Shown here: positions 1,922-25,947 of the stretch, in pieces
Numbering within the stretch: the first letter of the stretch is position 1
How the letters are laid out: each line of letters starts with the position of its first letter
The notes under the pieces: model-generated
Database searches by the model: none
Told to the model about the DNA's origin: nothing
Seen by the model: only the letters and a program-made list of their open reading frames with translations
Source of the DNA: an uncultured bacterium
Lineage (GTDB): Bacteria > Bacillota_I > Bacilli_A > RF39 > UBA660
Assembly (NCBI GenBank): GCA_949296705.1
Contig: CASFOW010000042.1
Span: forward strand, 25,096 to 89,095
Direction of reading: 5' to 3'
DNA length: 64,000 nucleotides
Translations under genes and position numbers: made by a program

Positions 1922-2707
1922 TTAAAGATTTGTAAACATGTAAATCATCGCTATTAGAATCAGAACCATAACACCAGCACCAGTCGCTACTAACATAACC
2001 ATAGTTTGTCCTTCCATATGCTCGATTCTTTCTTTGTATTTTTGATCTCTTGCCTTAGCTTGTAAATTAGATACTGTTCTAGAAAACATTAATAAACGTT
2101 CCTGTTTTCTTTCTTGGGAACCTAATCCTAAACGATATAGTAATCTCATCATTCTCATTGAATCACGAACTGGATACTGATTAGCAAAATCCATATAAGG
2201 CTGAATACTAGAATCGCCTGCATCAATTTTTGCAATCATTTCTCTAAGTCCTGGTTTAAATACATCCGGTGCTTCCGGAATTGATTTAGCTAGCGCAACT
2301 GGCACAGTATAGTGCTGTACTAAGATTTCTAATCCCTTTAAATAGTATGGCAACATGACATCAATTTCATGTAAGTGACGTTTATAGTATTTCTTTAAAT
2401 TTGTATATTCTATCTTATATACAAAGTAACCAACTAAAATCGATAACACAATATTAATTAATGATAATTCAGTTAAAAAAACAAAAAGAAAAATAACAAT
2501 AACTAAACCACCATTTTTTAATCGTTTGGCAAATATCTCATCTGGTGTTTTTTTATCCCCATAACGAGCAGCTACTAGAAACTCAAAATCATCTTCTTTT
2601 AATTTATCTAATAGCATCTTATTATCTTGAATAAACTTTTCACCATCAATATTTCGATTATATACTAAGATAAATACAAAAATTGCACCAACAATAAATA
2701 TTTCCAT
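1922..2707 (-). CDS. tadC: TadC-like pilus assembly membrane protein (T2SS-F domain)
   Basis: 261-aa polytopic membrane protein immediately downstream of a TadB-like gene with start/stop overlap at 2707. The order ATPase-TadB-TadC is canonical for Tad loci. Confidence 0.55.
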   Translation of the reverse strand: MEIFIVGAIFVFILVYNRNIDGEKFIQDNKMLLDKLKEDDFEFLVAARYGDKKTPDEIFAKRLKNGGLVIVIFLFVFLTELSLINIVLSILVGYFVYKIEYTNLKKYYKRHLHEIDVMLPYYLKGLEILVQHYTVPVALAKSIPEAPDVFKPGLREMIAKIDAGDSSIQPYMDFANQYPVRDSMRMMRLLYRLGLGSQERKQERLLMFSRTVSNLQAKARDQKYKERIEHMEGQTMVMLVATGAGVMVLILIAMIYMFTNL

Positions 2708-3600
2708 TATTCTTCACCCACATTCTCATTGTAAAACTTCTCACCCTTGAGTAGGAAGTAACTATTTACTAAGATAATACCGTGAAGAATTATCTTTACA
2801 AAGACATTATCTAACAATTGAATATAGGTATCTCTACCTAATAAATATTGAATTAGCATTACCATCAGATATAGCATAATTCCATATTTTAAGAATCCTT
2901 TATGAAAATTTGCTCTTTCCATACGGTCACGGTATACACTTTCTACTAGCATATCGATGTCTAGTTGCATGTTATCTAAAGATTCTCCAGAGTCTCTAGC
3001 TCCTTCTTTGGTAATTTGTAAAAATAATTGATGCATATTTTTAACAATATAATATGGATACTTGGTAGTCATAAATTCGATGGATTCATCGATAGATCCA
3101 TTCTGATAAGCTAGAGAAATCATTAAATCAACATCACTTAGTACAGGATCTTCTAAGACACCTGATGCAACAACACCTTCTAGAGCTTTTACGAAACTTT
3201 GTGTAGTTGCGAACTCCATAATTGTATTTGTCGTATAGATTTGAATTTGTTCAAAGATAAATTCGCTATAAACCCTTTTGCATCTTAGATAAGCAAGATA
3301 AGGAATCGTCATATCTAAGGCAATAATATAGATTACTGAAATCAATATATTATAGAAATATAGATAAGAAATAACTCCGGCAAAAATAGAAAAAGTTACT
3401 ACTTGAATCATATATTGTCTCGGAGTGTATTCTTGCCCTAAATCCTTTGTTTTCTGGCGAATAACTTTAAAGGAATACGGAGCAAAACGATTATACATGT
3501 TCGTTGCTTGTAACGTAATAAAGTGATAGACATTTTGTCCTTTATATTTACGGTAAAAAAGTATAAATAGCGCTATGGCTAATAGAATTAATAATTCCAC
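2707..3600 (-). CDS. tadB: TadB-like pilus assembly membrane protein (T2SS-F domain)
   Basis: 297-aa protein with N-terminal and C-terminal TM segments flanking a cytoplasmic helical domain. It directly follows the CpaF ATPase gene. Confidence 0.55.
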   Translation of the reverse strand: MELLILLAIALFILFYRKYKGQNVYHFITLQATNMYNRFAPYSFKVIRQKTKDLGQEYTPRQYMIQVVTFSIFAGVISYLYFYNILISVIYIIALDMTIPYLAYLRCKRVYSEFIFEQIQIYTTNTIMEFATTQSFVKALEGVVASGVLEDPVLSDVDLMISLAYQNGSIDESIEFMTTKYPYYIVKNMHQLFLQITKEGARDSGESLDNMQLDIDMLVESVYRDRMERANFHKGFLKYGIMLYLMVMLIQYLLGRDTYIQLLDNVFVKIILHGIILVNSYFLLKGEKFYNENVGEE

Positions 3601-3620: not shown

Positions 3621-5099
3621 TTAATTGTTGTTAAAATCCACGATGATTGGTTGAGTTTGATTCACTGTTGGATTTCCCCCTTGAGTTATACCACTACTAG
3701 TTGGTTGCAGTATAGCTTGTCCTAATGTCTGTGTTACTGGCTGTTGTTCGTGTGGTGGAGTTAAAGTTGTCGTTGAACTCTGGGAAGGAGTCGAAATCGG
3801 ATTAGGATTCGGTGTTGGAGCTACTGGTACATTGCCAACAGGATTAGAAACTGATGGTACTGGACTAGATACTGGTGTAATTGTTTCTTTTCTTTCCAAG
3901 GAAGCATTCACTGTCTCTGTTTGTTTGGATATATTATCTCCTGCGGTAGGAACTTTTACATTCTCTACCTTAGGAGATTCTAAATTTGTCGTTGGATTCT
4001 CCCCAATCACATCTTCCAATTTTATTCCCCCATCTTCTTCTTCCGCTCCTTCAAAAGTAGTTGATTCTAGTTCAACATTTTGTGCTAATAGTGAATCGAT
4101 CAAATGCTGACTAGGATTTTTCTTAATAATCTTTCCATTCATTAGTTTCTGATATAAAACATTGTAGACTGGTTTATTATTATCATCGATATAGAATTCC
4201 GTAATTTCATCAATTTCACGATGAAATTTTCCATATTTCTTACTATAGTAAGCTTTAATATGAACGCCTAATTGAACATAACGATAGATCGTACTTAAGA
4301 ATTGATCAACATCTAGTTCTGTTTCCATTAAAGAATACATACGATGTGGAATTGCACTTGCTTTATCTGAGTGGATTGTCGATAAAATATTATGTCCTGA
4401 AGAAATAGAGTTACGAACGGCACTTACAGCTTCGGCACTACGGACTTCTGACAAAAGAATCCATTTAGGGTTCTGTCTCATACAAGTAACTAATACATCA
4501 CTATAAGAAGCGATATTATTAGTTTTCATTGCGACAATATCACGATGTGGATAAATCTTATCTAAGTGTAATTCCAAGGTATCCTCAATCGTAATGATTT
4601 TTTCACTTTCTTTAGTATGGGATGCTAGATATTTGACAAATTCAGTTTTACCTGAACCTGTTTCTCCACAGACGATGATATTACAATGTCCATGAACGCA
4701 TTTAATTAAGAAATCATGAATATCTTTGGTTACATAATCTTCTTTTAATAACGTTTCTTCTTTTAATCGTATCTTAGCTGGTGTCTTACGAATAACTAAC
4801 GCAATTCCGTTAGTTGCAATTGATTCATGGACGAAATTCATACGTAACTCTGGACTTTCCGCATCAAGGAAAGGGCTAGCATTATTGAAAGTTGTCCCCA
4901 TAACGTTGGAACATTGAAAAGCTAACTTTTCTACTACACTATTATTAATGGCGGGATTTTCTACTCTAAGTGAACCTTGGGTTAAAGAACGAATCCAAAT
5001 TTGTCCATTATTCGTGTATGAGATATCGGTGATATCATCATTTTCGATATACTCTCTAAAAGCCCCAAAATCTAATTGTTCAAATAGGTTATCTTTCAT
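3621..5099 (-). CDS. cpaF: CpaF/TadA-family secretion ATPase with a C-terminal Pro/Thr/Ser-rich tail
   Basis: Walker A CGETGSGKTE and the family-typical segment VTCMRQNPKWILLSEVRSAEA, plus a His box. The core of about 350 aa is followed by about 130 aa of low complexity (PVSSPVPSVSNPVGNVPVAPTPNPNPISTPSQSSTTTLTPP...). Confidence 0.85.
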   Translation of the reverse strand: MKDNLFEQLDFGAFREYIENDDITDISYTNNGQIWIRSLTQGSLRVENPAINNSVVEKLAFQCSNVMGTTFNNASPFLDAESPELRMNFVHESIATNGIALVIRKTPAKIRLKEETLLKEDYVTKDIHDFLIKCVHGHCNIIVCGETGSGKTEFVKYLASHTKESEKIITIEDTLELHLDKIYPHRDIVAMKTNNIASYSDVLVTCMRQNPKWILLSEVRSAEAVSAVRNSISSGHNILSTIHSDKASAIPHRMYSLMETELDVDQFLSTIYRYVQLGVHIKAYYSKKYGKFHREIDEITEFYIDDNNKPVYNVLYQKLMNGKIIKKNPSQHLIDSLLAQNVELESTTFEGAEEEDGGIKLEDVIGENPTTNLESPKVENVKVPTAGDNISKQTETVNASLERKETITPVSSPVPSVSNPVGNVPVAPTPNPNPISTPSQSSTTTLTPPHEQQPVTQTLGQAILQPTSSGITQGGNPTVNQTQPIIVDFNNN

Positions 5100-5118: not shown

Positions 5119-5958
5119 TTACTCTGTTGGTAATGGTGCGGGATTTTCTAAATCCAAATCAGTAAACTCAGTTACTTCGTTAATAAAGTCACGTAATGTT
5201 TCACTAGCAATACTTACCTCACCTGGTTCTTCTTTTAGTGATTCATTCGTTGGTACTGGGATAATAGCAACTTCATAAGTACGTAAATATCCAGCCTTTC
5301 TTAATAGAATATGATATTCTTCTGGTAAAGCGAAGATAATTTGTGATGGTGTTTTAACGTTTTCTAAGTCTTCGAATACATCATCACCATTTGAATCTAA
5401 TACCGCAAGAATTTTTACATTCTTTAATAGTTTACCAACCATAATTTTATCTTCAGTATCTGCGGTAATATTTTCTTCATCTACTTTATTGGTTGCTTTA
5501 ATATAGATATCAATATAGTTTCCAGGATAGATCTTGTTACCATAAGTTGTTTCCGTTGTAACGGCTAAGTTCATTAAGACATAATCATCTGGATAGTCAT
5601 ATAGTATTGAATCTGGCAACTCTGATTGGGTAACTACTGCTCTTTGATAGAATAAGCTACCTTGTGGGATTGTGCAATCTGCATTAACATAGTAATTAAT
5701 AATTTTACTAGTGTCAGTAATAACATCTCCCTGTACCATAGCCATTGGTACATCCACGATACCAACCATATCGCTAGTAATTCTTGTTCTAGAAGAAATA
5801 TCTACTAAGGCGTAAGGTACACTAGTTGGATTGGTTTTTTGACTAATTCTGTAATTGTAGAAAAAATACAAGACGACAATTGCGATAACAGTCAAGATTA
5901 TCGTAACTGTATTTTTGTTTGTTAAGAACTTCTTTACTCTGGTTCCTACTCCATTCAT
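5119..5958 (-). CDS. cpaB: CpaB/RcpC-like Flp pilus assembly protein
   Basis: N-terminal TM anchor (TVTIILTVIAIVVLYFFY) followed by a region resembling a SAF domain (ALVDISSRTRITSDMVGIVDVPMAMVQGDVI). It sits immediately upstream of cpaF, as in Tad loci. Confidence 0.55.
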   Translation of the reverse strand: MNGVGTRVKKFLTNKNTVTIILTVIAIVVLYFFYNYRISQKTNPTSVPYALVDISSRTRITSDMVGIVDVPMAMVQGDVITDTSKIINYYVNADCTIPQGSLFYQRAVVTQSELPDSILYDYPDDYVLMNLAVTTETTYGNKIYPGNYIDIYIKATNKVDEENITADTEDKIMVGKLLKNVKILAVLDSNGDDVFEDLENVKTPSQIIFALPEEYHILLRKAGYLRTYEVAIIPVPTNESLKEEPGEVSIASETLRDFINEVTEFTDLDLENPAPLPTE

Positions 5959-5970
5959 TATTTTCCCCTC

Positions 5971-6399
5971 CTACTCAACTTCTTCAATCTTTCTTTTTTC
6001 ATTATATTTTGTTTCTAATATACCATCAATCGTCGTTACGATATCGAAATCTTCGCCAACAAAAGAGGCAACTGTTGTCGTTCCTACTTGGATACTTGCT
6101 TTTGGTGGTGTTTCATTGAAGTCAATAATCTTGATTCGATAGGTAGAAGATGCAGAAACGCTGTCTGCAAATCTTCTAATAAAACTCTCTAAGAATTTTT
6201 CTCTATCTACTCGTATAATTCCACCGGATGTACGATAATATCCCCAATCGACGCCGTCAATCATTGCTGCTTCAGTTGTTTCTTTCAATAAGTAATAATC
6301 TAATTCGTTACCCGATTGATAGTTTTGAATTAAATTTACACAGGCTAGAGTTAATACTCCTAAGATTATAATTCCTGTAATGATCATTCCTTTACTCAT
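5971..6399 (-). CDS. Small membrane-anchored protein, possible minor pilin/pseudopilin
   Basis: 142 aa, N-terminus MSKG/MIITGIIILGVLTLA with one hydrophobic helix then a soluble domain. Context is between the cysteine-rich protein and cpaB. Confidence 0.35.
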   Translation of the reverse strand: MSKGMIITGIIILGVLTLACVNLIQNYQSGNELDYYLLKETTEAAMIDGVDWGYYRTSGGIIRVDREKFLESFIRRFADSVSASSTYRIKIIDFNETPPKASIQVGTTTVASFVGEDFDIVTTIDGILETKYNEKRKIEEVE

Positions 6400-6411: not shown

Positions 6412-9402
6412 TTAATCATCGTCACAATCGCCACCGTAGGCATTGTTGCATATGGCAATTTGTTTTCGTGACTGCGCATTATAACCACTTGTATAAGTAA
6501 CATTTCCTGTGTCGTCTAAGAAATTACTTGTACATACTTCACGACCACCTATCGTTGAACAACTCATATCATAGTCCAGATAATTTGTATATCCATCGCC
6601 GTTAAAGTCTCCTACATTCTTGTTGTACTGTCGTATTCGCATGATTTGTTCTGTCGTCAGGATGATGTCGTAATCTACTTCATTTGTATCACTATAGATT
6701 TCATTTCCCTTATATTCGATATCTTCAGTTAACTCAATTGGGTTGATCTTATATCCTAATAGATTATAGATTCGACTATCGGTTGGGATTGCTCCATTTG
6801 TCCAATTCCAACGTGGATTTCTATCATTAGGGAAGACATCGACTAAATCAATCGGTCTATAGATAAAGGTTATTCCAGAATAATCAATCGGTGGTGTATC
6901 TCCGCCAGGGCAATCTGGTCCTGTACAAGTCTCTGGACAATTTGGCCCGGTACATGGCTGATCACAATCTGGGCAATTAGATCCATCTACTTGGGTTGGA
7001 TCATCTGGGTCAATGAATAAATTATTATATACTCCATAGAAGCAATTGATTTGATCACTATAGTCACGAGTTCCAATTCCATTTACATTAACAGTTATAG
7101 TTGCTTTTTTATTGCCCTGACTGAAATATTGGTCATAGCCAATTAAACTAACTCTCTGATTATAATCTAGTGGGATGGATACATTTGTATTTCTGCTCTT
7201 TGGATCCGTATAGTATCTTCTTCCGCCAGCATAGAATTTCTTAGCATCAAAATTAATATTGCCTAAACGTCCGGTATTGGCATCAAATGCTTCATAGCCT
7301 CTGCCCGCTTTGTAAGCAGCTAGACCGGTTGTTTTATTTACATAAGCTTCTGGTAGTTGTAAATCTACTGTTATGGATTTTTCGTTTTTCGTACAGTAAC
7401 TTACTGTTATATTGAATGGAGTAGGTGAATCTCCTAATTGTACTGTTCTTGTACCACCTGGACAGCTTACACCACTATGACTTACATTTTCAATAATATC
7501 GGCATCATTTGAACTTACTGTATAAGTATAAGCCTGATTACCTTTCTTTAAATAAGAATCTGAAATATTAATCGTGTAAGTACCTGTCTTTTGTTGTTCT
7601 TCAGCGATGGATTTAAAGTTCACATATTCATTATTTGAGGCAATCAATTGATTACCGTATAACTCATCTGGATTATCTACACATCCTGCAGGACCTACTG
7701 TTTCAGTAATTGTGCAGATTCCATTATGATTATCACAATATGTTGAGAATGTCATTCCAACATCACCACAGTGTTCAGTATGTACACTACAGGTATACAT
7801 TCCTTTATAATTACCTGCACCGTCTACTGAATCATGACTGAAGCTGCAGCGACTATCCGAGGTAGAAGTAATTACATCGATAATACTCGTCCCAGTTCTT
7901 TCAATAGAATGCTCAAGAAATGTAGTTGGACGTTCTAGTTTGGCATCTAAAAGAGATAAATCTCTAGGGTTATTTTTGCCATACACTGTATTGTAGCAAG
8001 AATTAATACAACTTTGTGTATATTTACCACCATCACACGAATTTACGCAAGCGTCAAAATCGTCATTTGGACCGCTAGTAGGATCTTCACCAGGATCGTC
8101 ACCTTTAGTGACACGACCGCTTCTTTCATCATAGCTGCAGACTGTGTGACAACTGTAAACGCATTTAGGTTTCTTAATAACTTGTTGTTTATGAACTATT
8201 GAACATTGCCTTGTTGCTTGAAATGTTCCTCCATAAGTGAATCCTGCTCCTGCATAGACGAGTTTAGCTCCAACTGGATAAATGTCATATTTTTCCCAAC
8301 AGGTAAGTCCCCAATAGGTACCCGATTGACTATAGACTATTTGATATCCTTGGTGTCGTTCTGTATTACATTGAAAACCATTGCTCGTATCAAGAATTGA
8401 ATATCCATCCTCTGGAGCACTTCCAACTAAGGCTTGCAGATTTTGATAAGCTTTTTGAATATCTTCTCTTAATGTCAGATATTGACTGTAAGTAATTTTA
8501 TCTTCATAACAAACTCCTGCATAGTTAAGTTTTAAAGAGGAAATTAAAGTTTGCAAGTAAGCAGGGTCTGGGGAATAAACTACTTTGCTATCTACTAGAT
8601 ATTGAATATAATCTTCTATTGTTTTACACCCGTAAGAATTATTTGTATCCCTAGAAGTGACTGCTGGGTTATCAAGATTAATACTATCTGCGGTATTGAT
8701 AACGACTTCTACGCTTGCAATATAAGTATTATTACAAGGTGAAGAAGGATCATCAATATAATATTCTAAAGTTATTTTATTGACATCAATCGAACCGGTT
8801 GCAGCATTATATTTTGAAGGTTCAAGATTTCTCAATACATAATAGTTCCCTTCTTTTGACAAAAAATTGCTGTAATCAGTTGAAAATTGTGAAGTGGTAT
8901 TTTTTTCTTCGCCTGGGGCTACATACCGTATCTTTGCGGTGCCACCAAATAAATCTTTTATCTTAAGGGTAATTAAACCATTCGATAAATTTAATTCCAT
9001 TTCAATATTTTTGTATTGATTGGTTTCATCATCAACAGCTAGCACATTATTTAATTCGTATCTTTTATCTTCAGCTGTTGTAGGACAAGTCTGAATACTA
9101 CCATAACTATCTGTATAGCAATTATATCCCTTTTCTACCACATTAAGTTTATATGGCGTTAAATCAGTCGTACCGACTGGATAAGTAACATAACCACTCA
9201 TTATCGCCGCTTCATCGATTTTATCGAGGGTTACGGCAGTTGATACACTTGGATCCCAACTTACTTGGTAGTATCGCTTGTTGGAAAGACAAAAGTTTTT
9301 ATTTTGTAATCCTGTAGCTGCTTCTGTTTTTTGTGGTAATAAAATCACGCAGATTACAATCAAGAAAAAGAAAAGTATTTTTGATTTTCTCATTATGTTC
9401 AC
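6412..9402 (-). CDS. Large secreted cysteine-rich protein (996 aa), candidate pilus-associated adhesin
   Basis: Sec-type signal peptide MNIMRKSKILFFFLIVICVILLPQKTEA/A. Many cysteines, including the cluster NCPDCDQPCTGPNCPETCTGPDCPGG at nt ~6900-7000. No LPxTG-like sorting signal at the C-terminus (ends ...GGDCDDD). Confidence 0.7.
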   Translation of the reverse strand: MNIMRKSKILFFFLIVICVILLPQKTEAATGLQNKNFCLSNKRYYQVSWDPSVSTAVTLDKIDEAAIMSGYVTYPVGTTDLTPYKLNVVEKGYNCYTDSYGSIQTCPTTAEDKRYELNNVLAVDDETNQYKNIEMELNLSNGLITLKIKDLFGGTAKIRYVAPGEEKNTTSQFSTDYSNFLSKEGNYYVLRNLEPSKYNAATGSIDVNKITLEYYIDDPSSPCNNTYIASVEVVINTADSINLDNPAVTSRDTNNSYGCKTIEDYIQYLVDSKVVYSPDPAYLQTLISSLKLNYAGVCYEDKITYSQYLTLREDIQKAYQNLQALVGSAPEDGYSILDTSNGFQCNTERHQGYQIVYSQSGTYWGLTCWEKYDIYPVGAKLVYAGAGFTYGGTFQATRQCSIVHKQQVIKKPKCVYSCHTVCSYDERSGRVTKGDDPGEDPTSGPNDDFDACVNSCDGGKYTQSCINSCYNTVYGKNNPRDLSLLDAKLERPTTFLEHSIERTGTSIIDVITSTSDSRCSFSHDSVDGAGNYKGMYTCSVHTEHCGDVGMTFSTYCDNHNGICTITETVGPAGCVDNPDELYGNQLIASNNEYVNFKSIAEEQQKTGTYTINISDSYLKKGNQAYTYTVSSNDADIIENVSHSGVSCPGGTRTVQLGDSPTPFNITVSYCTKNEKSITVDLQLPEAYVNKTTGLAAYKAGRGYEAFDANTGRLGNINFDAKKFYAGGRRYYTDPKSRNTNVSIPLDYNQRVSLIGYDQYFSQGNKKATITVNVNGIGTRDYSDQINCFYGVYNNLFIDPDDPTQVDGSNCPDCDQPCTGPNCPETCTGPDCPGGDTPPIDYSGITFIYRPIDLVDVFPNDRNPRWNWTNGAIPTDSRIYNLLGYKINPIELTEDIEYKGNEIYSDTNEVDYDIILTTEQIMRIRQYNKNVGDFNGDGYTNYLDYDMSCSTIGGREVCTSNFLDDTGNVTYTSGYNAQSRKQIAICNNAYGGDCDDD

Positions 9403-9459
9403 CTCGCTACTATACTATATATTTCATTATAACATATTTTAATTTTTTGACATAGTTTT

Positions 9460-10263
9460 TTATCCAATTTCTGATGCAGCACCTTCTGCTAACATGTTAA
9501 AGTTTTTACTTTTCGTTACCTTATACTTCTCAATTTCTTCGTCATCTCTCACTTTACGTGCATCGATTACAAATTGTTGTTTCTCAAAAGCGCCAAAATA
9601 TCTAGTACATGTTTTAACAGCAATCAATTCATCATTTTCATTTACATCAATATCATAATCATAGATTGAATTATCGCGCACACTAGCAATATAATCTTTG
9701 ATTTGTTCAGGATTACTCATGCTTCTGTCATTATCTCCTGCATAATCATAGAATCCAATCGCATAAATTTTATAAAGTTCTTCTTTTCCTTCTTTGGTAT
9801 AACTGATATACAAATTATCCTGCGCAAAATCATAATAGGTAAAAGCCATCAAGCCTTCAAAATAATTTAACATGCTCATATCACGAATCGGTGTACTGGA
9901 CACATTAATAATATTATGACCATGTATAACTTCTCTAGTTTCATCGGTATCGTATTCCGAGCTACGCCACGCATAATCAGATATACCATCATCACCATAA
10001 TCAAAGCTATTCAAAACCGCCATATCAATGTTTGTACCTTGTACTTGAATCCAACCAACAGTATAAAAATCTTCATATTTAAATTCTAGGGAATCCTGAG
10101 TTCGATCTTTAAAATTCAAAGTGATACTTGTATCAAACTTACTACCCGTTATACTGAAATAAATAATGGCTATAATTAATACGATAATAACCAAAATGCT
10201 TATTGTAATTAACATTCTCTTTTTTAGATCTAGTCTCTTGTTTTTTGACTTTCTCTTTCTCAT
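9460..10263 (-). CDS. srtB: Class B sortase-family transpeptidase
   Basis: N-terminal signal-anchor. Sequence FYTVGWIQVQGTNIDMAVLNS matches SrtB DIVGWIKLSGTSLNYPVLQG. His motif VIHGHN, Cys motif LIAVKTCTRY (TLxTC-like) and Arg motif FVIDARKV give the His/Cys/Arg catalytic triad in the canonical order. Confidence 0.7.
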   Translation of the reverse strand: MRKRKSKNKRLDLKKRMLITISILVIIVLIIAIIYFSITGSKFDTSITLNFKDRTQDSLEFKYEDFYTVGWIQVQGTNIDMAVLNSFDYGDDGISDYAWRSSEYDTDETREVIHGHNIINVSSTPIRDMSMLNYFEGLMAFTYYDFAQDNLYISYTKEGKEELYKIYAIGFYDYAGDNDRSMSNPEQIKDYIASVRDNSIYDYDIDVNENDELIAVKTCTRYFGAFEKQQFVIDARKVRDDEEIEKYKVTKSKNFNMLAEGAASEIG

Positions 10264-10278
10264 TAGTTATCACTTCCT

Positions 10279-12120
10279 TTACTGCAATAAATATGGATCG
10301 TTCATTGTACCTTTTCCTGATCTTATTTTTAAATTGCCATTCACATGCATCACTACTTTAACTGAAAATTCAGGGAAATTATCATTTGTTAATTCAAATG
10401 ACATTCCTGTTACTACATTCATCATGATTACCATATTTTCTCCTGTAGAACGATCTAAGAATAGTTGAATACGTTGTCCACTATAAGGACTACCACTTAC
10501 ACTAGCAAACAAATCAATCGTTGATGCCAACATCAGTTTTGCTTCTACTTTTTCTGTTTCTAAATCATTATATTTCGTGCTAGGACTATTTGTAATAATC
10601 TCATATTCATAAGGAATAATATTACTGTCATCTAAGTATTCAATATAATCTTCATTAAGTATGTATCCTGGATTATTTTCATCAGTTAAGTTATATTGAT
10701 AATTTGGAATATCAGAAGTAGAGACAGTTAGAACTCTGTTATCACTAATATTTAGTAGCGGATGAGCGCCGATTACTTTAACACTACCGTCTTTCTCTTG
10801 ACCAATAATTCTAAATAATTGTCCTGAATAAGAAATATATTCACCAACCAACCTGTTTTTTATTTCCTCGTGTTCTTCTCCGTACTGATAATCATTTAAT
10901 TTATAAGGATTTTCTTTCGTTCCATCCCCTTCATAAATATAAAGACCATTTTTTATCGTAATGACCGGCTTAATTGGCAAAATATTCAAATTGCTCGTTA
11001 GACTAGCAGTTCTACGCTCAGTAATTATTAAATTTTCATTCTCACGCTTATTGGCAAGCAAATAATAATAATTATTCCAATAATTCATCGAACTGTAACT
11101 ATTTTCTACTGTCTTATAGTATTCGTCTAGGCTAGGTAATCCCACTTTAGCCGTTACTGTCTCACTACAGCTACTATTAATATCATCTACACTATTTACT
11201 GCGCCAACACAATAGGTAGTATCGACTAAATATTTATCTGGATTTGTTAAACTATTGTAGAAAACATTATTTAACCAAGCTTCGACATTAGAATCCTTAT
11301 ATCCAGTACTATCATATCTAAGATTACTGACGACATCTTCACTGATTAATTTTACGTTACCATTTTCATCAACATTGATAATACGCCATAACATACCAGA
11401 AAATTGAACATAGTTGTCTTCTACTTGTCCTTTATAGTAATTGCTTTCATCGGTTTCACTAGCTACTGTTTCTGAAAAATTTCTAGCTACTGTTACCGTT
11501 CTCGTCACTTTGGTTTGATTATGAGTACTATCTTTTACTTTATAGATTACTTCATAACTACCTACTTTACTAGTATCTACTTTACTGGTATCCACAGTTA
11601 CCTTAGAAATATCTATCTCTCCATCTACATTATCAATAACTTTTTTAACCCCTGGATCTTCATAAGTACTATTGTGGCTAATGATCATATTTTCTTCGCC
11701 ATTTAACTCGATTTTTGGTCCTTCGTGGTCGATATCGGATTCATATTTGCCACATTTTAGATAAGTATAATACTGATATTCTCCATCTTCGGTTTGTACT
11801 ACTCTAACCCAGCTTGAAGTATCACATAATTTTTTGGTCTTAGGTACATATAGAGCCTCTACTCTATTTTCTAAAAACATCTTTTCTAGTGAGATTTCTC
11901 TACTTTCTCCCTTACCTGGTAATAATTCTTGACGATACTCATAGTAACGTTTAACCGCATCTAGGAAAATTTGTTCTTCTTGTTTGAAAATTTCAATTTT
12001 TGATAGCCAGAATACCCATAGAAGATATCCAAGCAGGAATAAGAATAAACTAAGCGCAATCAATATTCCTACCGCTTTTAAGTATTTATTTCTTAGAAAC
12101 CAAGCTTTTACTTTTTCCAT
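10279..12120 (-). CDS. Signal-anchored large extracytoplasmic protein (613 aa), function unknown
   Basis: N-terminal TM segment AVGILIALSLFLFLLGYLLWVFWL followed by about 560 aa of predicted extracellular sequence. No recognisable catalytic motifs. Second gene of the operon. Confidence 0.6.
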   Translation of the reverse strand: MEKVKAWFLRNKYLKAVGILIALSLFLFLLGYLLWVFWLSKIEIFKQEEQIFLDAVKRYYEYRQELLPGKGESREISLEKMFLENRVEALYVPKTKKLCDTSSWVRVVQTEDGEYQYYTYLKCGKYESDIDHEGPKIELNGEENMIISHNSTYEDPGVKKVIDNVDGEIDISKVTVDTSKVDTSKVGSYEVIYKVKDSTHNQTKVTRTVTVARNFSETVASETDESNYYKGQVEDNYVQFSGMLWRIINVDENGNVKLISEDVVSNLRYDSTGYKDSNVEAWLNNVFYNSLTNPDKYLVDTTYCVGAVNSVDDINSSCSETVTAKVGLPSLDEYYKTVENSYSSMNYWNNYYYLLANKRENENLIITERRTASLTSNLNILPIKPVITIKNGLYIYEGDGTKENPYKLNDYQYGEEHEEIKNRLVGEYISYSGQLFRIIGQEKDGSVKVIGAHPLLNISDNRVLTVSTSDIPNYQYNLTDENNPGYILNEDYIEYLDDSNIIPYEYEIITNSPSTKYNDLETEKVEAKLMLASTIDLFASVSGSPYSGQRIQLFLDRSTGENMVIMMNVVTGMSFELTNDNFPEFSVKVVMHVNGNLKIRSGKGTMNDPYLLQ

Positions 12121-12123
12121 AAT

Positions 12124-13683
12124 CTATTCTCCTTTTAATTGATAAAAATATTGATAAGTTCTAACTGTAAAGTATAGTTCTATATTAGTCGCATTTACCA
12201 TCTCACTAGGTGCTGCGATAAATAAATGATCTCCACGATAATTCGTTAGTAGATAAGAAATATTCATCTCTTTTGTCTCTCCATTTATGGTATAGCGTAT
12301 CTTTCCATAAGTTTTTAAAAAATCGAGAAAATCCTTTTTGCTTCCTTCTTTTAATTTATATTTTGCGTAGAAAATCACTTGATTTTCTTTACTTTCTAGG
12401 GTCGCCTCATAGATAGGACAAGTTTTAGCATTACATTGTTCATAACGATAATCCATCGCATTCGTTAACGCAAAATTAGATAGGCTAAATGTCCATTCTT
12501 TCTCTAAATTGATAGGAACAGTTAACTCTTCGCCGAGAGAGACATTGGCTTTTTCAATAAATTTACTGATATCTCTTACCTGAACCCGAATTCTTTTGGC
12601 GGCATCATTAAATTTACCAGTTCGATAAGTTAATAAAAAGTTACTGTTTTCTTTTGGGGCATCAATCTCAAAAACAAATAAAATATTTTCACTACTAGAA
12701 GCTTTAATTTTCTTACCACTACTATAAAGCGTACCAATATCATTAAAATATAAATTGAATCTTTCAGAAGGGGTATACTGTTGATTATCTATATATAAGA
12801 AGAAATATTCATTACTGATTGGAACATCACTAGTTTGATCATTGGTAATTTTTACATCCAAGATAAAATAGTATTTACTTTTTGCAATTTGATTTCCGGT
12901 ATAATCACGATTAGTGATATAGGCATTCTCTATTTGGAATTTAAGTCCATTTGCGGATACTGCTTCTCCCATACTGTATACTTTATTGACTACAAAAGCA
13001 TAGTGATAGACATTAAATGAAGCTAATAACACAACCAAAACAATTAAAATACTAATACTAAACTTGTGTTCTAAAAAGGTATATTTTATATAACGAAGAT
13101 TTCTTCTAAAGGCTCTAATATAACGATCTTTATCAAAAGTAATCTCTACTTCTACTTCTTCACGATCTTCGTCGTTAATTTCTGCGAATTCTTTGTCTTC
13201 TCCAAATCCAAATCTCTTTAAGTCTAGACCTATGGAACGGATAAGTAATAATAAAATAGCTGGATAATAGGGAATAGTGACAATAAAAGATAAATCTCGA
13301 ATCGTTAACGCAGATACTAAATCAAACTCCTGTGTTACCGTTATCGTAAAGTAATAATAATGATAAATAAAGAAGGCTAACGTGATAATTGATACACCTA
13401 AGATAAATACATAGGAAATAAATGGTTTATCCTTATATTTTAGTAAATAAGCTAAGATTGCGGAAATAATAGTAATCAGTACAATAGCGCCAATAGAAAA
13501 AATATTTACATAGTTACTTATGGAATCTAATTGACTACTATAAATACCGGTTGCGATATAATCTTTTATGAATTGATATAATTCTAATTCTTTCCATAAA
13601 ACAAAAATAACTAGAGCGAGTAAGACTATATTGATTTTCTTAAAGTTACGAATTAAAAAGGCATATGGCTTTCTTAGAATCAC
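12124..13683 (-). CDS. Polytopic membrane protein with a large C-terminal extracytoplasmic domain (519 aa), function unknown
   Basis: GTG start with RBS AGGAGGGG. About 4 TM helices at the N-terminus, an acidic cytoplasmic loop (EINDEDREEVEVE), a further TM, then a soluble domain of about 300 aa. First gene of the operon. Confidence 0.6.
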   Translation of the reverse strand: MILRKPYAFLIRNFKKINIVLLALVIFVLWKELELYQFIKDYIATGIYSSQLDSISNYVNIFSIGAIVLITIISAILAYLLKYKDKPFISYVFILGVSIITLAFFIYHYYYFTITVTQEFDLVSALTIRDLSFIVTIPYYPAILLLLIRSIGLDLKRFGFGEDKEFAEINDEDREEVEVEITFDKDRYIRAFRRNLRYIKYTFLEHKFSISILIVLVVLLASFNVYHYAFVVNKVYSMGEAVSANGLKFQIENAYITNRDYTGNQIAKSKYYFILDVKITNDQTSDVPISNEYFFLYIDNQQYTPSERFNLYFNDIGTLYSSGKKIKASSSENILFVFEIDAPKENSNFLLTYRTGKFNDAAKRIRVQVRDISKFIEKANVSLGEELTVPINLEKEWTFSLSNFALTNAMDYRYEQCNAKTCPIYEATLESKENQVIFYAKYKLKEGSKKDFLDFLKTYGKIRYTINGETKEMNISYLLTNYRGDHLFIAAPSEMVNATNIELYFTVRTYQYFYQLKGE

Positions 13684-13795: not shown

Positions 13796-14269
13796 ATGAA
13801 AAAATTTAGTTTTATTATTATCTTAGTTGCTCTTTTATTGGTTAGTGGGTGTTCTAAGAGTTATTTAAAAGAAATTTCTTATGATGAATACAAAAAACTA
13901 TTAGAAGATGAGGAAACTTTTATTTTGGAGGTAATGAGTGATGATTGTACGGCTTGTAAAGATTTTCGTCCGAAATTAAAAGATGTTGCTTCTAGTTACA
14001 AAATTGAAGTAAAGTATATCAATATTGATAAGTTAACTGCTGATCAATACGATGAACTTGCTGTTTCAGCAACGCCTACTGTGATTTTTTATATAGATGG
14101 TGAAGAGGAAACAACAGCCGCAAGAATTGTTGGATCAGTAAAAAGAGAAAAGATTATTTCTAAGTTTAAGGCTAGTGGGTTTATTGAAGATGAGGCTTCA
14201 GATCAATCTAATGAAAAAGATAACTCTGTTGAACAAGACGAGCAACAAGAGAAAAACACTTCAAAATAA
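13796..14269 (+). CDS. Thioredoxin-fold lipoprotein with a CxxC motif
   Basis: Lipobox LLVSGC. CTAC (CxxC) motif in DDCTACKDF, with a Trx-like fold pattern (ATPTVIFYIDGEE). Acidic C-terminal tail. Divergently transcribed from the Tad-like operon. Confidence 0.7.
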   Translation: MKKFSFIIILVALLLVSGCSKSYLKEISYDEYKKLLEDEETFILEVMSDDCTACKDFRPKLKDVASSYKIEVKYINIDKLTADQYDELAVSATPTVIFYIDGEEETTAARIVGSVKREKIISKFKASGFIEDEASDQSNEKDNSVEQDEQQEKNTSK

Positions 14270-14295
14270 AAAAGTAGGATTTCCTACTTAGTTTT
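14268..14295. terminator. Bidirectional rho-independent terminator
   Basis: Hairpin AGTAGGA-TT-TCCTACT, T-run on plus strand (TAGTTTT) and A-run upstream. It lies between convergent genes. Confidence 0.55.
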
Positions 14296-15723
14296 AAATA
14301 AATAATATTCATCAGTACTGAAGAGAAGATCATACTTCTCTTTTTCTTGCTGTAAATATGGGTATAAGACATCATTTGGGGCGACAATAAAGTGAGTAAA
14401 ATGGTAAGTGTTAATAAATTTATCTAGTGATAATTGTCCCTTTTGTAGGTTGTAATACTCCTGAAAGATATCTTTTTGATGATTATTTCGTTTTAAAAAC
14501 ACTTCGGCTCTAGAATCAATATACGTCTTTAAACCTCGGTATTCAACATATCCTCCTTCAGAGAAACCCGTATATAAAATAACTTGGTTCTTATCATAGT
14601 GTGATAATAAGTAATCGATAGTGGTTTTTAATGGATTGGTTAGCTCGTGGGGTAAAAAGATAAGAAGTGTTAGCATTAAACCAAATAGAAAAGTAATTAC
14701 TCGTTGCTGATATGCTGTTTTTTTTATTGTTGATATTGGAAGCTGGGGAAAATGCTCCTTTATACAATAGATTAATGGGAGTAATCCACCTAAAAGAAAG
14801 AAAGCAAAACCCTTGTATGAAGAAAGTGCTAAATAGGTTGTACCCAAAAGCAAGCACAAATATTTTAATTTTATCTTTCTTTTTTTAGAAACTAGATAAA
14901 TTATATAAACAGTTAAAACGACAGTATAAATGATTACTCCCATTCGTGTTGCCAATTGTGGTACTTGCATTTCTTGTACAAGGGCATTGATACTAGTATA
15001 TCCATAAGAGGTGAAAATATAAGTAATGGCAGCGATTCCATAGGGATTAAAAAGGCCTGCTAGAAACATCAATATGATACTAGTGTATAATGGTAGTATT
15101 CTTTTTAATTTTCTTTGCTGATAATCTTGAATGGTCATTTCAATGGTATACGGAAGCAAAAATAGAAATAACATGAACCACATTGAAGCGTGTAAATTGA
15201 TTTCTAAGAGAGACAGTAATGGTAAGAACAACAGATATTGTTTTTTTCTAGTTTGTTGATATTTTTCTAATGTGTAGATTAAAATTAATAGAATTAAGTA
15301 AGTAAAAACTTGAGGACGAGTTTGAATAAAATTCATTAATAATAAGCCATCGACTAAAATAGCAAAGAAAATGGATAAATTACGGCGATTATCACTAATC
15401 ACTAGACATATTTTATACAAAAAATACAAAATAAAAAGATTTATTGTGATAATAAGTAAGGATAATCCAAAGCCACCTAACCAATGATAGACTTCGTAAA
15501 AAATAGTAGCAGCTAGATGTTGTTGCATAACAAAGTCTAATCCTTCATGAATAGTAAAAGGCTCCATATAAGGAATACCATGAGTTACTACATATCTACC
15601 CTGATTAAGTAAAAACCAAATGTCATTATCATAACTAGTACTTACGATAATAGATACGGCAAAAGGAATAAAAAAATAGAGATAGGCATATTTAGTAGGT
15701 AAAGAAAAAAACTTTTTTTTCAT
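14284..15723 (-). CDS. Polytopic membrane protein (479 aa), possibly a GT-C-type glycosyltransferase
   Basis: At least 10 predicted TM helices with a soluble C-terminal domain. The architecture resembles GT-C/YfhO-like enzymes. No diagnostic motif was confirmed. Confidence 0.45.
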   Translation of the reverse strand: MKKKFFSLPTKYAYLYFFIPFAVSIIVSTSYDNDIWFLLNQGRYVVTHGIPYMEPFTIHEGLDFVMQQHLAATIFYEVYHWLGGFGLSLLIITINLFILYFLYKICLVISDNRRNLSIFFAILVDGLLLMNFIQTRPQVFTYLILLILIYTLEKYQQTRKKQYLLFLPLLSLLEINLHASMWFMLFLFLLPYTIEMTIQDYQQRKLKRILPLYTSIILMFLAGLFNPYGIAAITYIFTSYGYTSINALVQEMQVPQLATRMGVIIYTVVLTVYIIYLVSKKRKIKLKYLCLLLGTTYLALSSYKGFAFFLLGGLLPLIYCIKEHFPQLPISTIKKTAYQQRVITFLFGLMLTLLIFLPHELTNPLKTTIDYLLSHYDKNQVILYTGFSEGGYVEYRGLKTYIDSRAEVFLKRNNHQKDIFQEYYNLQKGQLSLDKFINTYHFTHFIVAPNDVLYPYLQQEKEKYDLLFSTDEYYLFKTK

Positions 15724-24570: not shown

Positions 24571-25947
24571 TTAGAAATCACAGTTACCTGGAGTTCTTGG
24601 ATACGGAATAACATCTCGAATATTTTCTACTCCTGTTAAGTAAATCAATAAGCGTTCAAATCCCATTCCAAATCCCGAATGTACGCAACCTCCAAAACGG
24701 CGTAAATTCAAATACCATTCCATTCCTTCAATAGGAACGTGCATTTCTTTCATTCTGGCAACTAATTTATCATAATCTTCTTCTCTTTGACTGCCTCCCA
24801 TTAGTTCCCCAGCGCCTGGTACTTCTAAGTCTACGGCAGCTACAGTTTTTCCATCTGAATTTTGTTTCATATAAAATGCCTTAATATCCTTTGGCCAATC
24901 TGTAATAAAGACTGGACCATCAAAATACTCGGTAATATATTTTTCATGTTCTTTGGCAATATCTTCCCCATATTCTGGCGCAAACTCCCATTTTACATCA
25001 GCTTTTTTCAAAATAGTGATCACATCCTCGTGACGAATTCTTGTGAATTTACTATTTACTAGCTTCGTCAATTTCTCAATTAATCCCTTTTCTACATATT
25101 GATCACAGAAAGCCATTTCCTCTTTGGCATGTTCTAACACATATTTTACTATAAATTTCAACATATCTTCTTCTACATCCATCAACTCTTCAAGATCACA
25201 GAATGCCATTTCTGGTTCAATCATCCAAAATTCACTAGCATGGGTTTTAGTATTAGAATTTTCAGCTCGGAAAGTTGGACCAAAAGTATATATGTTTCTG
25301 AATGCTAAAGCAAAAGTTTCTCCTTGTAGTTGGCCAGAAACAGTAAGTGATGCGGGTTTGCCAAAGAAATCTTTACTATAGTCTACTTTACCTGTTTCGG
25401 CCACCTTTTCTAAATCTAAGGTTGTTACTTGAAACATTTCTCCAGCACCCTCACAATCACTTGCGGTAATTAGTGGTGCATGTAAATACACAAATCCTTT
25501 TTCTTGAAAATAAGTATGAATTGCCATTGCCGCAACACTTCTAATTCTAAATACAGCTTGAAACAAGTTAGCTCGGGGGCGAAGATAGCCTATTTCCCGC
25601 AAAAATTCACGAGAGTGTTGCTTTGGCTGTAGTGGATAATCATCACTACAATCTCCTTCTAACGTTACTTCTTTGGCTTTAATTTCATATTGTTGACCTT
25701 TACCCTCCGATTTTACTAATTTTCCTACTACGCGAATCGCGCTGCCATGCTTAAGGGATTCTATCTTTTCATAGTCTTTACTATTTTCTTTATCATATAC
25801 AATTTGGATATGGGTAAAACATGTCCCATCAGAAAAGTCAATAAACCCAAATTCTTTCTGCTTACGATGCCTTCTTATCCATCCTTTAATTTCTACCTCT
25901 TTGTCTAGATATGTTTCTACTTTGTCATATAATTCTCTTAATGTCAT
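24571..25947 (-). CDS. asnS: Asparagine--tRNA ligase
   Basis: 458 aa. N-terminal OB anticodon-binding domain, then a class II core with FRAE, GxGxER-type (GFERL) and other AsnRS-typical segments (HAPLITASDCEGAGEMF). Confidence 0.9.
   Translation of the reverse strand: MTLRELYDKVETYLDKEVEIKGWIRRHRKQKEFGFIDFSDGTCFTHIQIVYDKENSKDYEKIESLKHGSAIRVVGKLVKSEGKGQQYEIKAKEVTLEGDCSDDYPLQPKQHSREFLREIGYLRPRANLFQAVFRIRSVAAMAIHTYFQEKGFVYLHAPLITASDCEGAGEMFQVTTLDLEKVAETGKVDYSKDFFGKPASLTVSGQLQGETFALAFRNIYTFGPTFRAENSNTKTHASEFWMIEPEMAFCDLEELMDVEEDMLKFIVKYVLEHAKEEMAFCDQYVEKGLIEKLTKLVNSKFTRIRHEDVITILKKADVKWEFAPEYGEDIAKEHEKYITEYFDGPVFITDWPKDIKAFYMKQNSDGKTVAAVDLEVPGAGELMGGSQREEDYDKLVARMKEMHVPIEGMEWYLNLRRFGGCVHSGFGMGFERLLIYLTGVENIRDVIPYPRTPGNCDF

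Follow-up and report, generated by a model that had tools for sequence, protein, structure and literature searches.

A divergent class B sortase-like protein as a fixed part of a Tad-like pilus locus in uncultured gut Bacilli

Background

Why does an operon for a type IV pilus contain a sortase gene, with no sortase substrate beside it? Textbooks define sortases by an active site of His, Cys, and Arg and by substrates that carry a C-terminal sorting signal. The stretch analysed here (hereafter the window; 64,000 nucleotides, positions 25,096 to 89,095 of contig CASFOW010000042.1 from an uncultured bacterium of the lineage RF39) carries a Tad-like pilus operon, in which a first-pass annotation had called a class B sortase at positions 9460-10263 and remarked that no substrate lies nearby. 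The finding is real, and it is more unusual than could be seen at first, because the protein lacks the canonical catalytic Arg, holds a fixed place in the locus, and belongs to a locus linked to a type IV secretion system (T4SS). What we say of its function is a proposal drawn from sequences. The subfamily departs from both textbook rules, yet it is under strong selection and fixed in a type IV filament locus.

If the enzyme modifies a component of this machine, it would join sortase pili and type IV pili, two Gram-positive worlds normally held as alternatives. It would also bear on how type IV filaments or T4SS channels are held in, and cross, a thick wall without a secretin. The carriers are abundant, uncultured Bacilli of human, rabbit, chicken, and ruminant guts; hence, the machine may matter for DNA exchange or adhesion in the gut. 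Literature searches for a sortase tied to a Tad or type IV pilus machine found no paper.

A divergent enzyme with the class B sortase fold

The open reading frame (ORF) was verified at 9460-10263 on the minus strand. It encodes 267 amino acids (aa), and its ATG start has AGGAAGTG just 5′. At its N-terminus, the protein has a basic stretch followed by a hydrophobic helix of 22 residues (residues 17-38), which bears out the anchor proposed at first, and it continues as a soluble domain. By the positive-inside rule, this arrangement would place the catalytic domain outside the cell, tethered to the membrane by its N-terminus.

Curated sequence models score the protein low. TIGR03064 (sortase_srtB, NCBIfam) gave 34 bits, below its cut-off of 153.75, and the Pfam Sortase model PF04203 gave no match at E<=0.01. 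Some family members have a precomputed PF04203 match, partly faint, and a protein of 85% identity from a metagenome-assembled genome (MAG) is named 'hypothetical protein' by NCBI. Searched against the PDB, the single sequence retrieved the SrtB structures of Clostridioides difficile and Clostridium perfringens (E ~1e-7). A profile of 36 family members matched these SrtBs at E 9e-18, and it also matched the class B enzymes of Listeria monocytogenes, Staphylococcus aureus, Bacillus anthracis, Streptococcus pneumoniae (PI-2), and Streptococcus pyogenes (Spy0129). The AlphaFold (AF2) model of the protein reached a pLDDT of 87.8, and its Foldseek matches in the PDB at ranks 1-19 were all class B sortases (SrtB), with E-values from 1e-13 to 7e-9 and TM-scores up to 0.79 normalised to the target. 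Fold, profile, and family alignment show a real but highly divergent sortase-type enzyme with the modelled fold of class B, an eight-stranded beta-barrel with the N-terminal helices and the beta6/beta7 helix of that class, in agreement with the class B call of the first-pass annotation.

The solved SrtBs of C. difficile, C. perfringens, S. aureus, and L. monocytogenes (PDB 5GYJ, 5B23, 1NG5, 5JCV) share with our protein the fold with its SrtB-type helices, the N-terminal membrane anchor, a GW..GT motif, and the aligned catalytic His and Cys. The SrtB-like motif noticed at first stands as well, since 'TVGWIQVQGTNID' aligns with 'IVGWIKLSGTSLNYP' of SrtB. Identity to these enzymes is 14-28%, however, and several features set the family apart. 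The Arg of strand beta8 is replaced by Gln or other residues, and an almost invariant Arg stands two residues after the Cys (Cys+2). The family also has an insertion of its own after the catalytic His, GHNxxN(V/L)SxxP (in the form GHNxxNVSSxP when set against SrtBs), and a conserved C-terminal extension of ~30 residues. On three points the protein was tested and differed from SrtB: it falls under the thresholds of the curated models TIGR03064 and PF04203, it lacks the beta8 Arg, and it has no adjacent substrate with a sorting signal. We therefore place it as a sortase variant and not as SrtB. It is a distinct offshoot of class B within the sortase superfamily, which resembles class B sortases in fold and probably also in its predicted chemistry.

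The catalytic arginine is missing from its canonical position

The first-pass annotation had read a full set of catalytic residues. Alignment to SrtB upholds this for His and Cys and overturns it for Arg. In an hhalign comparison with S. aureus SrtB, H116 (9916-9918) pairs with H130 and C219 (9607-9609) with C223, while the catalytic Arg233 pairs with Gln229. In an alignment that combined the family with 28 ordinary Oscillospiraceae relatives obtained in the same genome scan, the catalytic Arg of the relatives ('...YRFVIVAKLV') falls on Gln230 of our protein ('...QQFVIDARKV'; 9574-9576). In the AF2 model, beta8 comprises residues 230-237 and is preceded by a loop of 10 residues, as long as that of S. 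aureus SrtB. The catalytic Arg sits at the start of beta8 in C. difficile (R217), S. aureus (R233), and Spy0129 (R229) (PMC5118464; PMC11231552), and it is treated as conserved in all sortase classes (PMC11231552). The His/Cys/Arg triad is thus incomplete in its canonical form. The Arg counted in the first-pass annotation was probably R236 of 'DARKV' (9556-9558). We rejected it as the catalytic residue, since it aligns with a K/R that lies six residues into beta8 and is kept in ordinary SrtBs ('VAKLV', 'MARLL').

His116, after beta4, and Cys219, at the end of beta7, do not vary among 167 non-redundant family sequences, and the Cys lies within a motif (V/L)xTC that is followed by TR. The canonical Arg position holds Q, E, L, T, D, S, N, and others. 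Arg221, the Cys+2 residue of 'TCTR' (9601-9603), is present in every sequence but one, from locus L048, which reads 'TCTN' and is also the sole sequence of the 167 with an Arg at the canonical beta8 position. When 1.84 billion representatives were searched exhaustively with HMMER, 118 proteins were found at E<=1e-30, and 55 family-type representatives were taken at 50% identity. Nearly all of these (54/55) lack the canonical Arg, and their Cys+2 residue is R in 51, K in 3, and A in 1. As a side observation, L048 and L037 both belong to MAG JAFRIS01 from goat jejunum, with two cluster copies on separate contigs.

Docking on S. aureus SrtB described a pocket lined by the residues at Cys+1, +2, and +4 (PMC12603079). 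Based on this report and on the conservation pattern, we infer that Arg221 reaches the active site and replaces the lost Arg. L048 regains the canonical Arg where the Cys+2 Arg is gone, and His and Cys stay invariant at ~30% identity, as would be expected of an active site under selection.

How this state may have arisen is suggested by a sister group of sortases (300-515 aa) at greater distance. These stand-alone, SrtB-like enzymes of Clostridia (P0340, P0317) share 'TCTR' and the insertion after the His (GHNxxNxSxxP) with our family. They differ from it in keeping the canonical Arg ('QRFVVMAR'), in their long N-terminal extensions, and in lying outside pilus loci. The last point was seen for P0340 (two contigs), the sole sister-group case with usable flanks, where the sortase gene is alone beside rplJ/rplL. 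The presence of both arginines in one group offers a path for the loss of the canonical Arg, and the simplest history would be an ancestor with two arginines near the Cys, the canonical one of which was then lost in the lineage of the pilus locus.

The sortase gene holds a fixed place in the locus

The gene lies inside a Tad-like operon, as the first-pass annotation had it. The operon is long and runs on the minus strand, and no intrinsic terminators were predicted between its genes. Their order is a 519-aa protein, a 613-aa protein, the sortase, a protein of ~996 aa, a DUF5411 protein, an RcpC/CpaB-like protein, a TadA-like ATPase, and two putative platform proteins (TadB-like, TadC-like), followed by a 67-aa Flp-like pilin, two 173-aa pilin-like proteins, and the start of a TadZ-like gene. 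The sortase gene is separated by 15 nt from the 613-aa gene upstream and by 57 nt from the ~996-aa gene downstream. The 57-nt gap holds a promoter-like site (ATGTCA, 16 nt, TG-TATAAT) at 9426-9453 on the minus strand, which is a consensus match only.

The same gene order recurs in two metagenome relatives (49% and 43% identity) and in ~50 GTDB species representatives, among which sortase identity ranges from 85% down to ~32%. These ~50 carriers are labelled uncultured Bacilli, 'Tenericutes', 'Mollicutes', or Erysipelotrichaceae, and they come from human, rabbit, chicken, mouse, and ruminant guts. In the cluster-bearing genomes, the sortase gene always stands between the 613-aa and the ~1000-aa genes. 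The sortase would be a dedicated core component of a Tad-like machine in this clade of uncultured gut Bacilli.

A few genomes have a nine-gene core without adjacent pilins and T4SS genes. In the rumen MAG locus L035 (9839-11223), only 46 codons of the ~1000-aa gene are left as a remnant, and neither pilin nor T4SS genes follow TadC. This locus keeps the sortase, 519-aa, 613-aa, DUF5411, RcpC-like, and ATPase genes. Among plasmids, a search of PLSDB with the sortase returned two Paeniclostridium sordellii srtB matches at 26% identity and nothing else, and a search with DUF5411 returned none. Searches of IMG/VR with a CpaB profile, of PADLOC, and of PHROGs gave nothing useful.

Search for a substrate

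The neighbours had been listed at first as proteins of 519, 613, 996, 142, 173, and 173 aa that lack a sorting signal. These lengths are correct, and none of the proteins ends in a motif followed by a hydrophobic and a basic tail. Among all ORFs of the window, no C-terminus resembles a sorting signal, save for the last transmembrane (TM) segment of a platform protein. Nor was a sorting signal found in the ~17 kb downstream, as read in two closely related contigs (TadZ-like protein, T4SS pilins, VirB6, VirB3, VirB4, hydrolase, lipoprotein, VirD4); over that distance, the idea that a canonical substrate might lie just outside the window on the same strand finds no support. Some 1,800 ORFs of the clade's loci, taken with 20-kb flanks, were filtered in the same search; one passed (L104), and its C-terminus has no recognisable sorting motif.

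Several other candidates were rejected. The lipoprotein downstream of the hydrolase has a C-terminal TM segment and a basic tail, with no conserved motif ahead of the TM segment. An 'LPxG' after the TM segment of the 613-aa protein was considered as an LPXTG-like site; its register varies by subclade (LPTGER versus LPKKGE), and it lies inside a conserved Cys-pair domain. The C-terminus of the same protein, G-x-G-T-x3-P-Y, was considered as a signal; the motif also ends an internal repeat and hence looks structural. A role for the sortase as cyclase of VirB2-like pilins, by analogy with TraF and TrbC, was set aside, as the tails after helix 2 of these pilins are variable and without a motif, and their Cys pair points to a disulfide. 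Finally, a role for the sortase as stand-in for the missing prepilin peptidase, with a cut at MKEAT|G, was dropped on grounds of topology, since the leaders lie in the cytoplasm and the sortase domain on the outer side.

We scanned 18 conserved locus families for a Thr that at least 90% of sequences share, where the next residue is G, N, A, S, or D in no fewer than 80% and a conserved Pro lies 1-3 residues before it. One site passed, 'IIPVPT|NES' (P-x(0-2)-T-[GNASD]), in the RcpC/CpaB-like alignment-ring protein (5119-5958, minus strand; 279 aa, with an N-terminal TM segment, a SAF-like domain D1, and an RcpC domain D2). Residues V235-T237 of its PVPT|N correspond to 5248-5256. VPT followed by N, A, or D is found in 43 of the 44 orthologues. 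Class B pilus sortases recognise xVPTG signals, and those of the Spy0129/SrtG1 type resemble the PVPT|N junction; the cleavage site of S. aureus SrtB is NPQT|N. Because class B enzymes recognise such signals, PVPT|N is plausible as a class B site.

By sequence, the RcpC-like protein scores under the cut-offs of PF16976 (25.2 versus 28.8) and TIGR03177 (32 versus 71), and PF16976 is present in many of its orthologues. The best PDB match of its AF2 model is RcpC of Pseudomonas aeruginosa (9GZR, E 1e-10). In the model, the last beta-strand (228-236) terminates in the motif, and beyond it lie a linker modelled with low confidence (243-251), a short helix that is conserved (252-262), and an acidic tail without order. 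The N-terminal helix of the protein already tethers it to the membrane. Sequence searches of the PDB with the 996-aa, 613-aa, and CpaB-like proteins gave no useful match, and a homologue search with the CpaB-like protein returned in-clade sequences only, hence no outgroup. RcpC has been described as a membrane-anchored, dodecameric alignment ring with the pilus running through it; the C-terminal element that follows D2, a hairpin, docks onto the outer-membrane secretin (PMC12307814).

Several observations speak against cleavage at PVPT|N. Unlike a sorting signal, the site has neither a hydrophobic segment nor a basic tail, and the segment that follows it is acidic. The orthologue of L030 reads VPKRVTSS, and the sortase of that locus is intact. 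In a related Clostridia locus, L065, CpaB is without the motif, though the locus has a canonical sortase and a PVKTG substrate. VPT is near-invariant in the clade, so that no co-variation is available to link the motif with the sortase. The confidence of the RcpC-like model is moderate (pLDDT 66). Weighing these points, we put the RcpC/CpaB-like protein forward as the leading candidate substrate, a tentative choice that we consider unlikely to be the right one.

Possible roles of the sortase

We regard it as slightly short of an even chance that the sortase is active, dedicated to this machine, and acts on a protein encoded in the locus via a non-canonical signal. More broadly, it probably modifies part of a pilus or DNA-transfer-type machine. 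As we picture it, the enzyme would be a membrane-anchored extracellular Cys transpeptidase or protease, with Arg221 in the role of the lost Arg. It would cleave the RcpC-like protein after Thr237 of the PVPT|N(A)ES junction and release the acidic C-terminal segment of ~42 residues. The new C-terminus would then be transferred to a peptidoglycan amine, or the bond simply hydrolysed. By transfer, the membrane-anchored alignment ring would be fixed to the cell wall. The diderm counterpart would be the C-terminal hairpin of RcpC on the outer-membrane secretin, which is absent in these monoderms. In its most complete form, the proposal is that a sortase with a relocated Arg staples an RcpC ring to peptidoglycan via an internal PVPT|N, as a substitute for the secretin, in a chromosomal hybrid of a Tad system and a Gram-positive T4SS, the latter thereby equipped with a pilus and a VirB11-like ATPase of its own. 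We think this full version unlikely as it stands.

Alternatively, the protein might be an ordinary, if divergent, sorting enzyme whose sorting-signal substrates are encoded elsewhere in the genome, with its position in the locus reflecting co-regulation or history. The closest larger group of relatives does consist of stand-alone SrtB-type enzymes, and our substrate search covered the window, ~17 kb downstream, and 20-kb flanks in relatives. L065, in which Tad and T4SS genes occur with a canonical SrtB, has its PVKTG substrate ~4.4 kb off; hence, a substrate need not be adjacent. A general sorting enzyme is, however, hard to reconcile with a position fixed between the same two genes in ~50 species at 32-85% identity, a gene packed tightly against its upstream neighbour, and a family that has lost the canonical Arg and carries its own insertion after the His. 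The sole sorting-signal-like C-terminus among the ~1,800 ORFs, without a recognisable motif, also argues against it. We judge this alternative to have a low probability.

The constant flanking by the 613-aa and ~996-aa genes raises another option, namely that the enzyme is a hydrolytic maturation protease for one of these two neighbours, without wall attachment, acting for example in trimming or release during the assembly of a tip complex. Both neighbours are extracellular, and the loss of the canonical Arg may suit an altered chemistry or substrate. Nevertheless, neither neighbour has a conserved Thr-[GNASD] with a nearby Pro, the end motif of the 613-aa protein recurs internally and looks structural, and L035 retains the sortase where the ~996-aa gene is only a remnant. 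This makes a maturation protease quite improbable.

The first-pass annotation had raised the option that the sortase polymerises or cross-links the pilins of the Tad-type filament covalently, as pilus-specific sortases do. The locus encodes several pilin-like proteins, and the pilus-polymerising class B sortases Spy0129 (3psq) and S. pneumoniae PI-2 (4y4q) are among the structural matches. However, the Flp-like, DUF5411, and 173-aa proteins have variable C-termini with no conserved sortase-type motif, and what is conserved in them, the leaders, is cytoplasmic, on the other side of the membrane from the sortase domain. Type IV filaments assemble non-covalently, and some cluster genomes keep the sortase without a small pilin beside the locus. 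We consider pilin cross-linking very unlikely.

Least likely of all is a catalytically dead, sortase-fold scaffold or structural subunit of the machine: the Arg held to be conserved in all classes (PMC11231552) is missing and the curated-model scores are far under the cut-off, but His116 and Cys219 are invariant at a family divergence to ~30% identity, and the Cys+2 Arg is near-invariant, with a lone exception that regains the canonical Arg.

Linkage to a type IV secretion module

The machine to which the sortase would be dedicated may extend further. Past the window edge the locus continues (followed in L085 10547-20522 and L089 10001-17959), as contigs with an identical 173-aa protein show. 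There, the TadZ-like gene is followed by a VirB2-type T4SS pilin (PF18895), a 487-aa protein with another such hairpin at its end, TrbL/VirB6, a VirB3-like protein, and a TraC-like protein together with VirB4. In a 97%-identical relative, the locus goes on with a SpoIID+M15 wall hydrolase, the lipoprotein mentioned above, and a VirD4 coupling protein (E 4e-62), before rhodanese and TypA are reached. Pfam matches in this module were P-loop_TraG/AAA_10 on a 595-aa protein, TrbL_4, T4SS_pilin, SpoIID with Peptidase_M15_4, and T4SS-DNA_transf. No relaxase or integrase was seen in the locus sequence available.

The TadZ-like gene is present in 40 of 42 VirB4 loci with enough upstream sequence, and platform and pilin genes in 31-33 of the 42. 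Seen from the other side, pilins and TadZ are found in 23 of 28 sortase loci with enough downstream sequence. A Gram-positive T4SS module adjoins the Tad-like module in most genomes; adjacency does not prove a joint machine. According to a recent review, conjugative pili are not encoded by Gram-positive T4SSs, from which VirB11 homologues are universally absent (PMC12857230). The linkage of Tad and T4SS genes is thus unusual in itself, and the locus contradicts this claim at the level of gene linkage at least. A chromosomal hybrid of Tad and T4SS in monoderms appears to be undescribed.

Both types of VirB2-like pilin (L085 11627-11965 and 12054-13517; orthologues in L088-L167) have two conserved cysteines, one immediately ahead of helix 1 and one at the C-terminus, the latter as '..CW..' or as '..P(T/M)CG(I/L)x' at the very end. 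The pair suggests a disulfide that would join both ends of the pilin, a possible substitute for the head-to-tail cyclisation of TrbC/VirB2.

Comparison with known pilus and transfer systems

The pilus class B sortases S. pyogenes Spy0129/SrtC2 and S. pneumoniae PI-2 SrtG1 (3PSQ, 4Y4Q) have, like our protein, the class B fold and a gene inside a pilus cluster. In contrast to the locus described here, they polymerise LPXTG-type pilins with a full C-terminal sorting signal. No such protein was found here, where the filament is of type IV (Tad-like) and its pilins have N-terminal class III leaders.

With the Tad/Flp (type IVc) systems, such as that of P. aeruginosa RcpC (9GZR), the locus shares a TadA-type ATPase, two putative platform proteins, a TadZ-like gene, an RcpC homologue, a small Flp-like pilin, and pilin-like minor proteins. 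It differs from them in lacking a secretin and the Glu5/Tyr6 Flp motif, and no prepilin peptidase is encoded within it. It also has extra conserved genes (519-aa, 613-aa, sortase, ~996-aa, DUF5411) and an adjacent T4SS module.

Gram-positive conjugation loci can also hold a sortase gene within or next to a conjugation-type T4SS, as is the case here. One example is srtD in the conjugation locus of C. perfringens pCW3, and L065 has Tad genes in addition. L065 (1-20741; uncultured Clostridia MAG, CALXQE010000047.1) looks like a mobile element. It encodes NlpC/P60, CpaB, TadZ, SSB, TadA, TadB, TadC, Flp, and TadE-like proteins, a canonical SrtB with its Arg present, a SipW-type signal peptidase, TasA-like proteins, VirD4, and a VirB2-like protein. 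Its 364-aa protein ends in PVKTG, a TM segment, and RKKGK. In pCW3 and L065, a canonical sortase anchors an LPXTG/PVKTG adhesin, whereas the locus described here is chromosomal, has housekeeping flanks, and shows no such adhesin and, in the sequence seen, no relaxase. An L065-type locus may be a relative or the evolutionary source of the chromosomal locus.

Among published predictions, Miller et al. (2022) used gene embeddings to predict an operon of CpaF, PilC, and DUF5411 in Roseburia, Ruminococcus, and Eubacterium (PMC9523054). Compared by its description, that operon also belongs to Gram-positive gut bacteria and combines a CpaF-type ATPase, a PilC-like protein, and DUF5411 in a run of 8-9 otherwise unannotated genes. 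It differs in being from Clostridia and in that no T4SS link is described; the word 'sortase' is absent from the text.

Other genes of the locus

All genes of the operon lie on the minus strand. The 519-aa gene (12124-13683) opens the conserved block and encodes a polytopic membrane protein whose N-terminus (MILRKPYAFLI...) is invariant. This protein also has an acidic loop that is conserved, and its DUF4352-like domain is extracellular. The 613-aa bitopic protein (10279-12120), whose stop is 15 nt from the sortase start, is directly upstream of the sortase in every case. It has an N-terminal TM segment, a Cys-pair domain, a bacterial Ig-like domain, and one Pfam match to DUF6273, and the G-x-G-T-x3-P-Y motif is present twice. 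Within its residues 1-135, the TM helix precedes a conserved helix, a turn with the sequence 'LP.G', and the paired Cys99 and Cys123. By eye, this Cys-pair domain resembles the head domain of type IV pilins and pseudopilins, without a Gly-containing leader cleavage site; the protein may be an uncleaved pilin-like adhesin.

The ~996-aa gene (6412-9402), which directly follows the sortase gene, encodes a secreted, Cys-rich protein with a signal peptide and a conserved C-terminal region ending in C-N-N-x(n)-C. It gave no family or PDB match, and its true start is likely the ATG at 9393 behind GCGAGGTG and not the GTG at 9402. The DUF5411 protein (5971-6399; 142 aa), encoded in every cluster, is pilin-like, with a short basic leader, a Gly, and a hydrophobic helix (MSKG/MIITG...).

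The secretion ATPase of TadA/VirB11 type (3621-5099; 492 aa) matches PF00437 (T2SSE) at E 1e-26, and its best NCBIfam models are VirB11, TadA, and TrbB, each under the equivalog cut-off. Residues ~360-492 form a low-complexity C-terminal tail of ~130 residues rich in P, T, Q, S, and N, and the tails of the orthologues vary in sequence. Such a tail seems unusual to us for ATPases of this type. The TadB-like (2707-3600; 297 aa) and TadC-like (1922-2707; 261 aa) platform proteins are polytopic and were assigned by position, size, and conservation across loci, having no Pfam match.

The Flp-like small pilin (1655-1858; 67 aa) has a highly conserved N-terminus, MKEATG/ELNMTVVTIIAIG. The Glu5/Tyr6 Flp motif (G/xxxxEY) was not found in this protein, whose N-terminus reads MKEATG/ELNMTVV. 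The two paralogous 173-aa proteins (535-1596, that is, 1075-1596 and 535-1056) have MKExxGG leaders and are probably minor pilins. The leaders of the pilin-like proteins of the locus are very short (MKEATG/E.., MKExxGG/V.., MSKG/M..), and the Glu5 (and Tyr6) typical of bacterial type IV and Flp pilins is missing from these proteins. No match to a peptidase A24 model, as expected of a prepilin peptidase, was found among the scanned locus proteins. The TadZ-like gene (1-510; 335 aa) runs off the window, which holds its 5′ part; it has no Pfam match, and its assignment is our own reading.

On the plus strand, divergent from the operon start, a thioredoxin-like lipoprotein is encoded at 13796-14269. 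It matches TraF of the F transfer operon weakly (E 4e-5), and it flanks the cluster here and in L001, while in L003 it lies ~6 kb upstream. It is plausible as the oxidoreductase for the Cys-pair proteins of the locus. Beside it, a 479-aa polytopic membrane protein is encoded at 14284-15723 on the minus strand, with no Pfam match. The chromosomal flanks are of housekeeping type. On one side of the cluster in the window, they include the thioredoxin-like lipoprotein, a U32 peptidase, and S15; a relative has PNPase along with S15. Further along the window are genes for PolC, DnaE, a PASTA kinase, and a Mur ligase.

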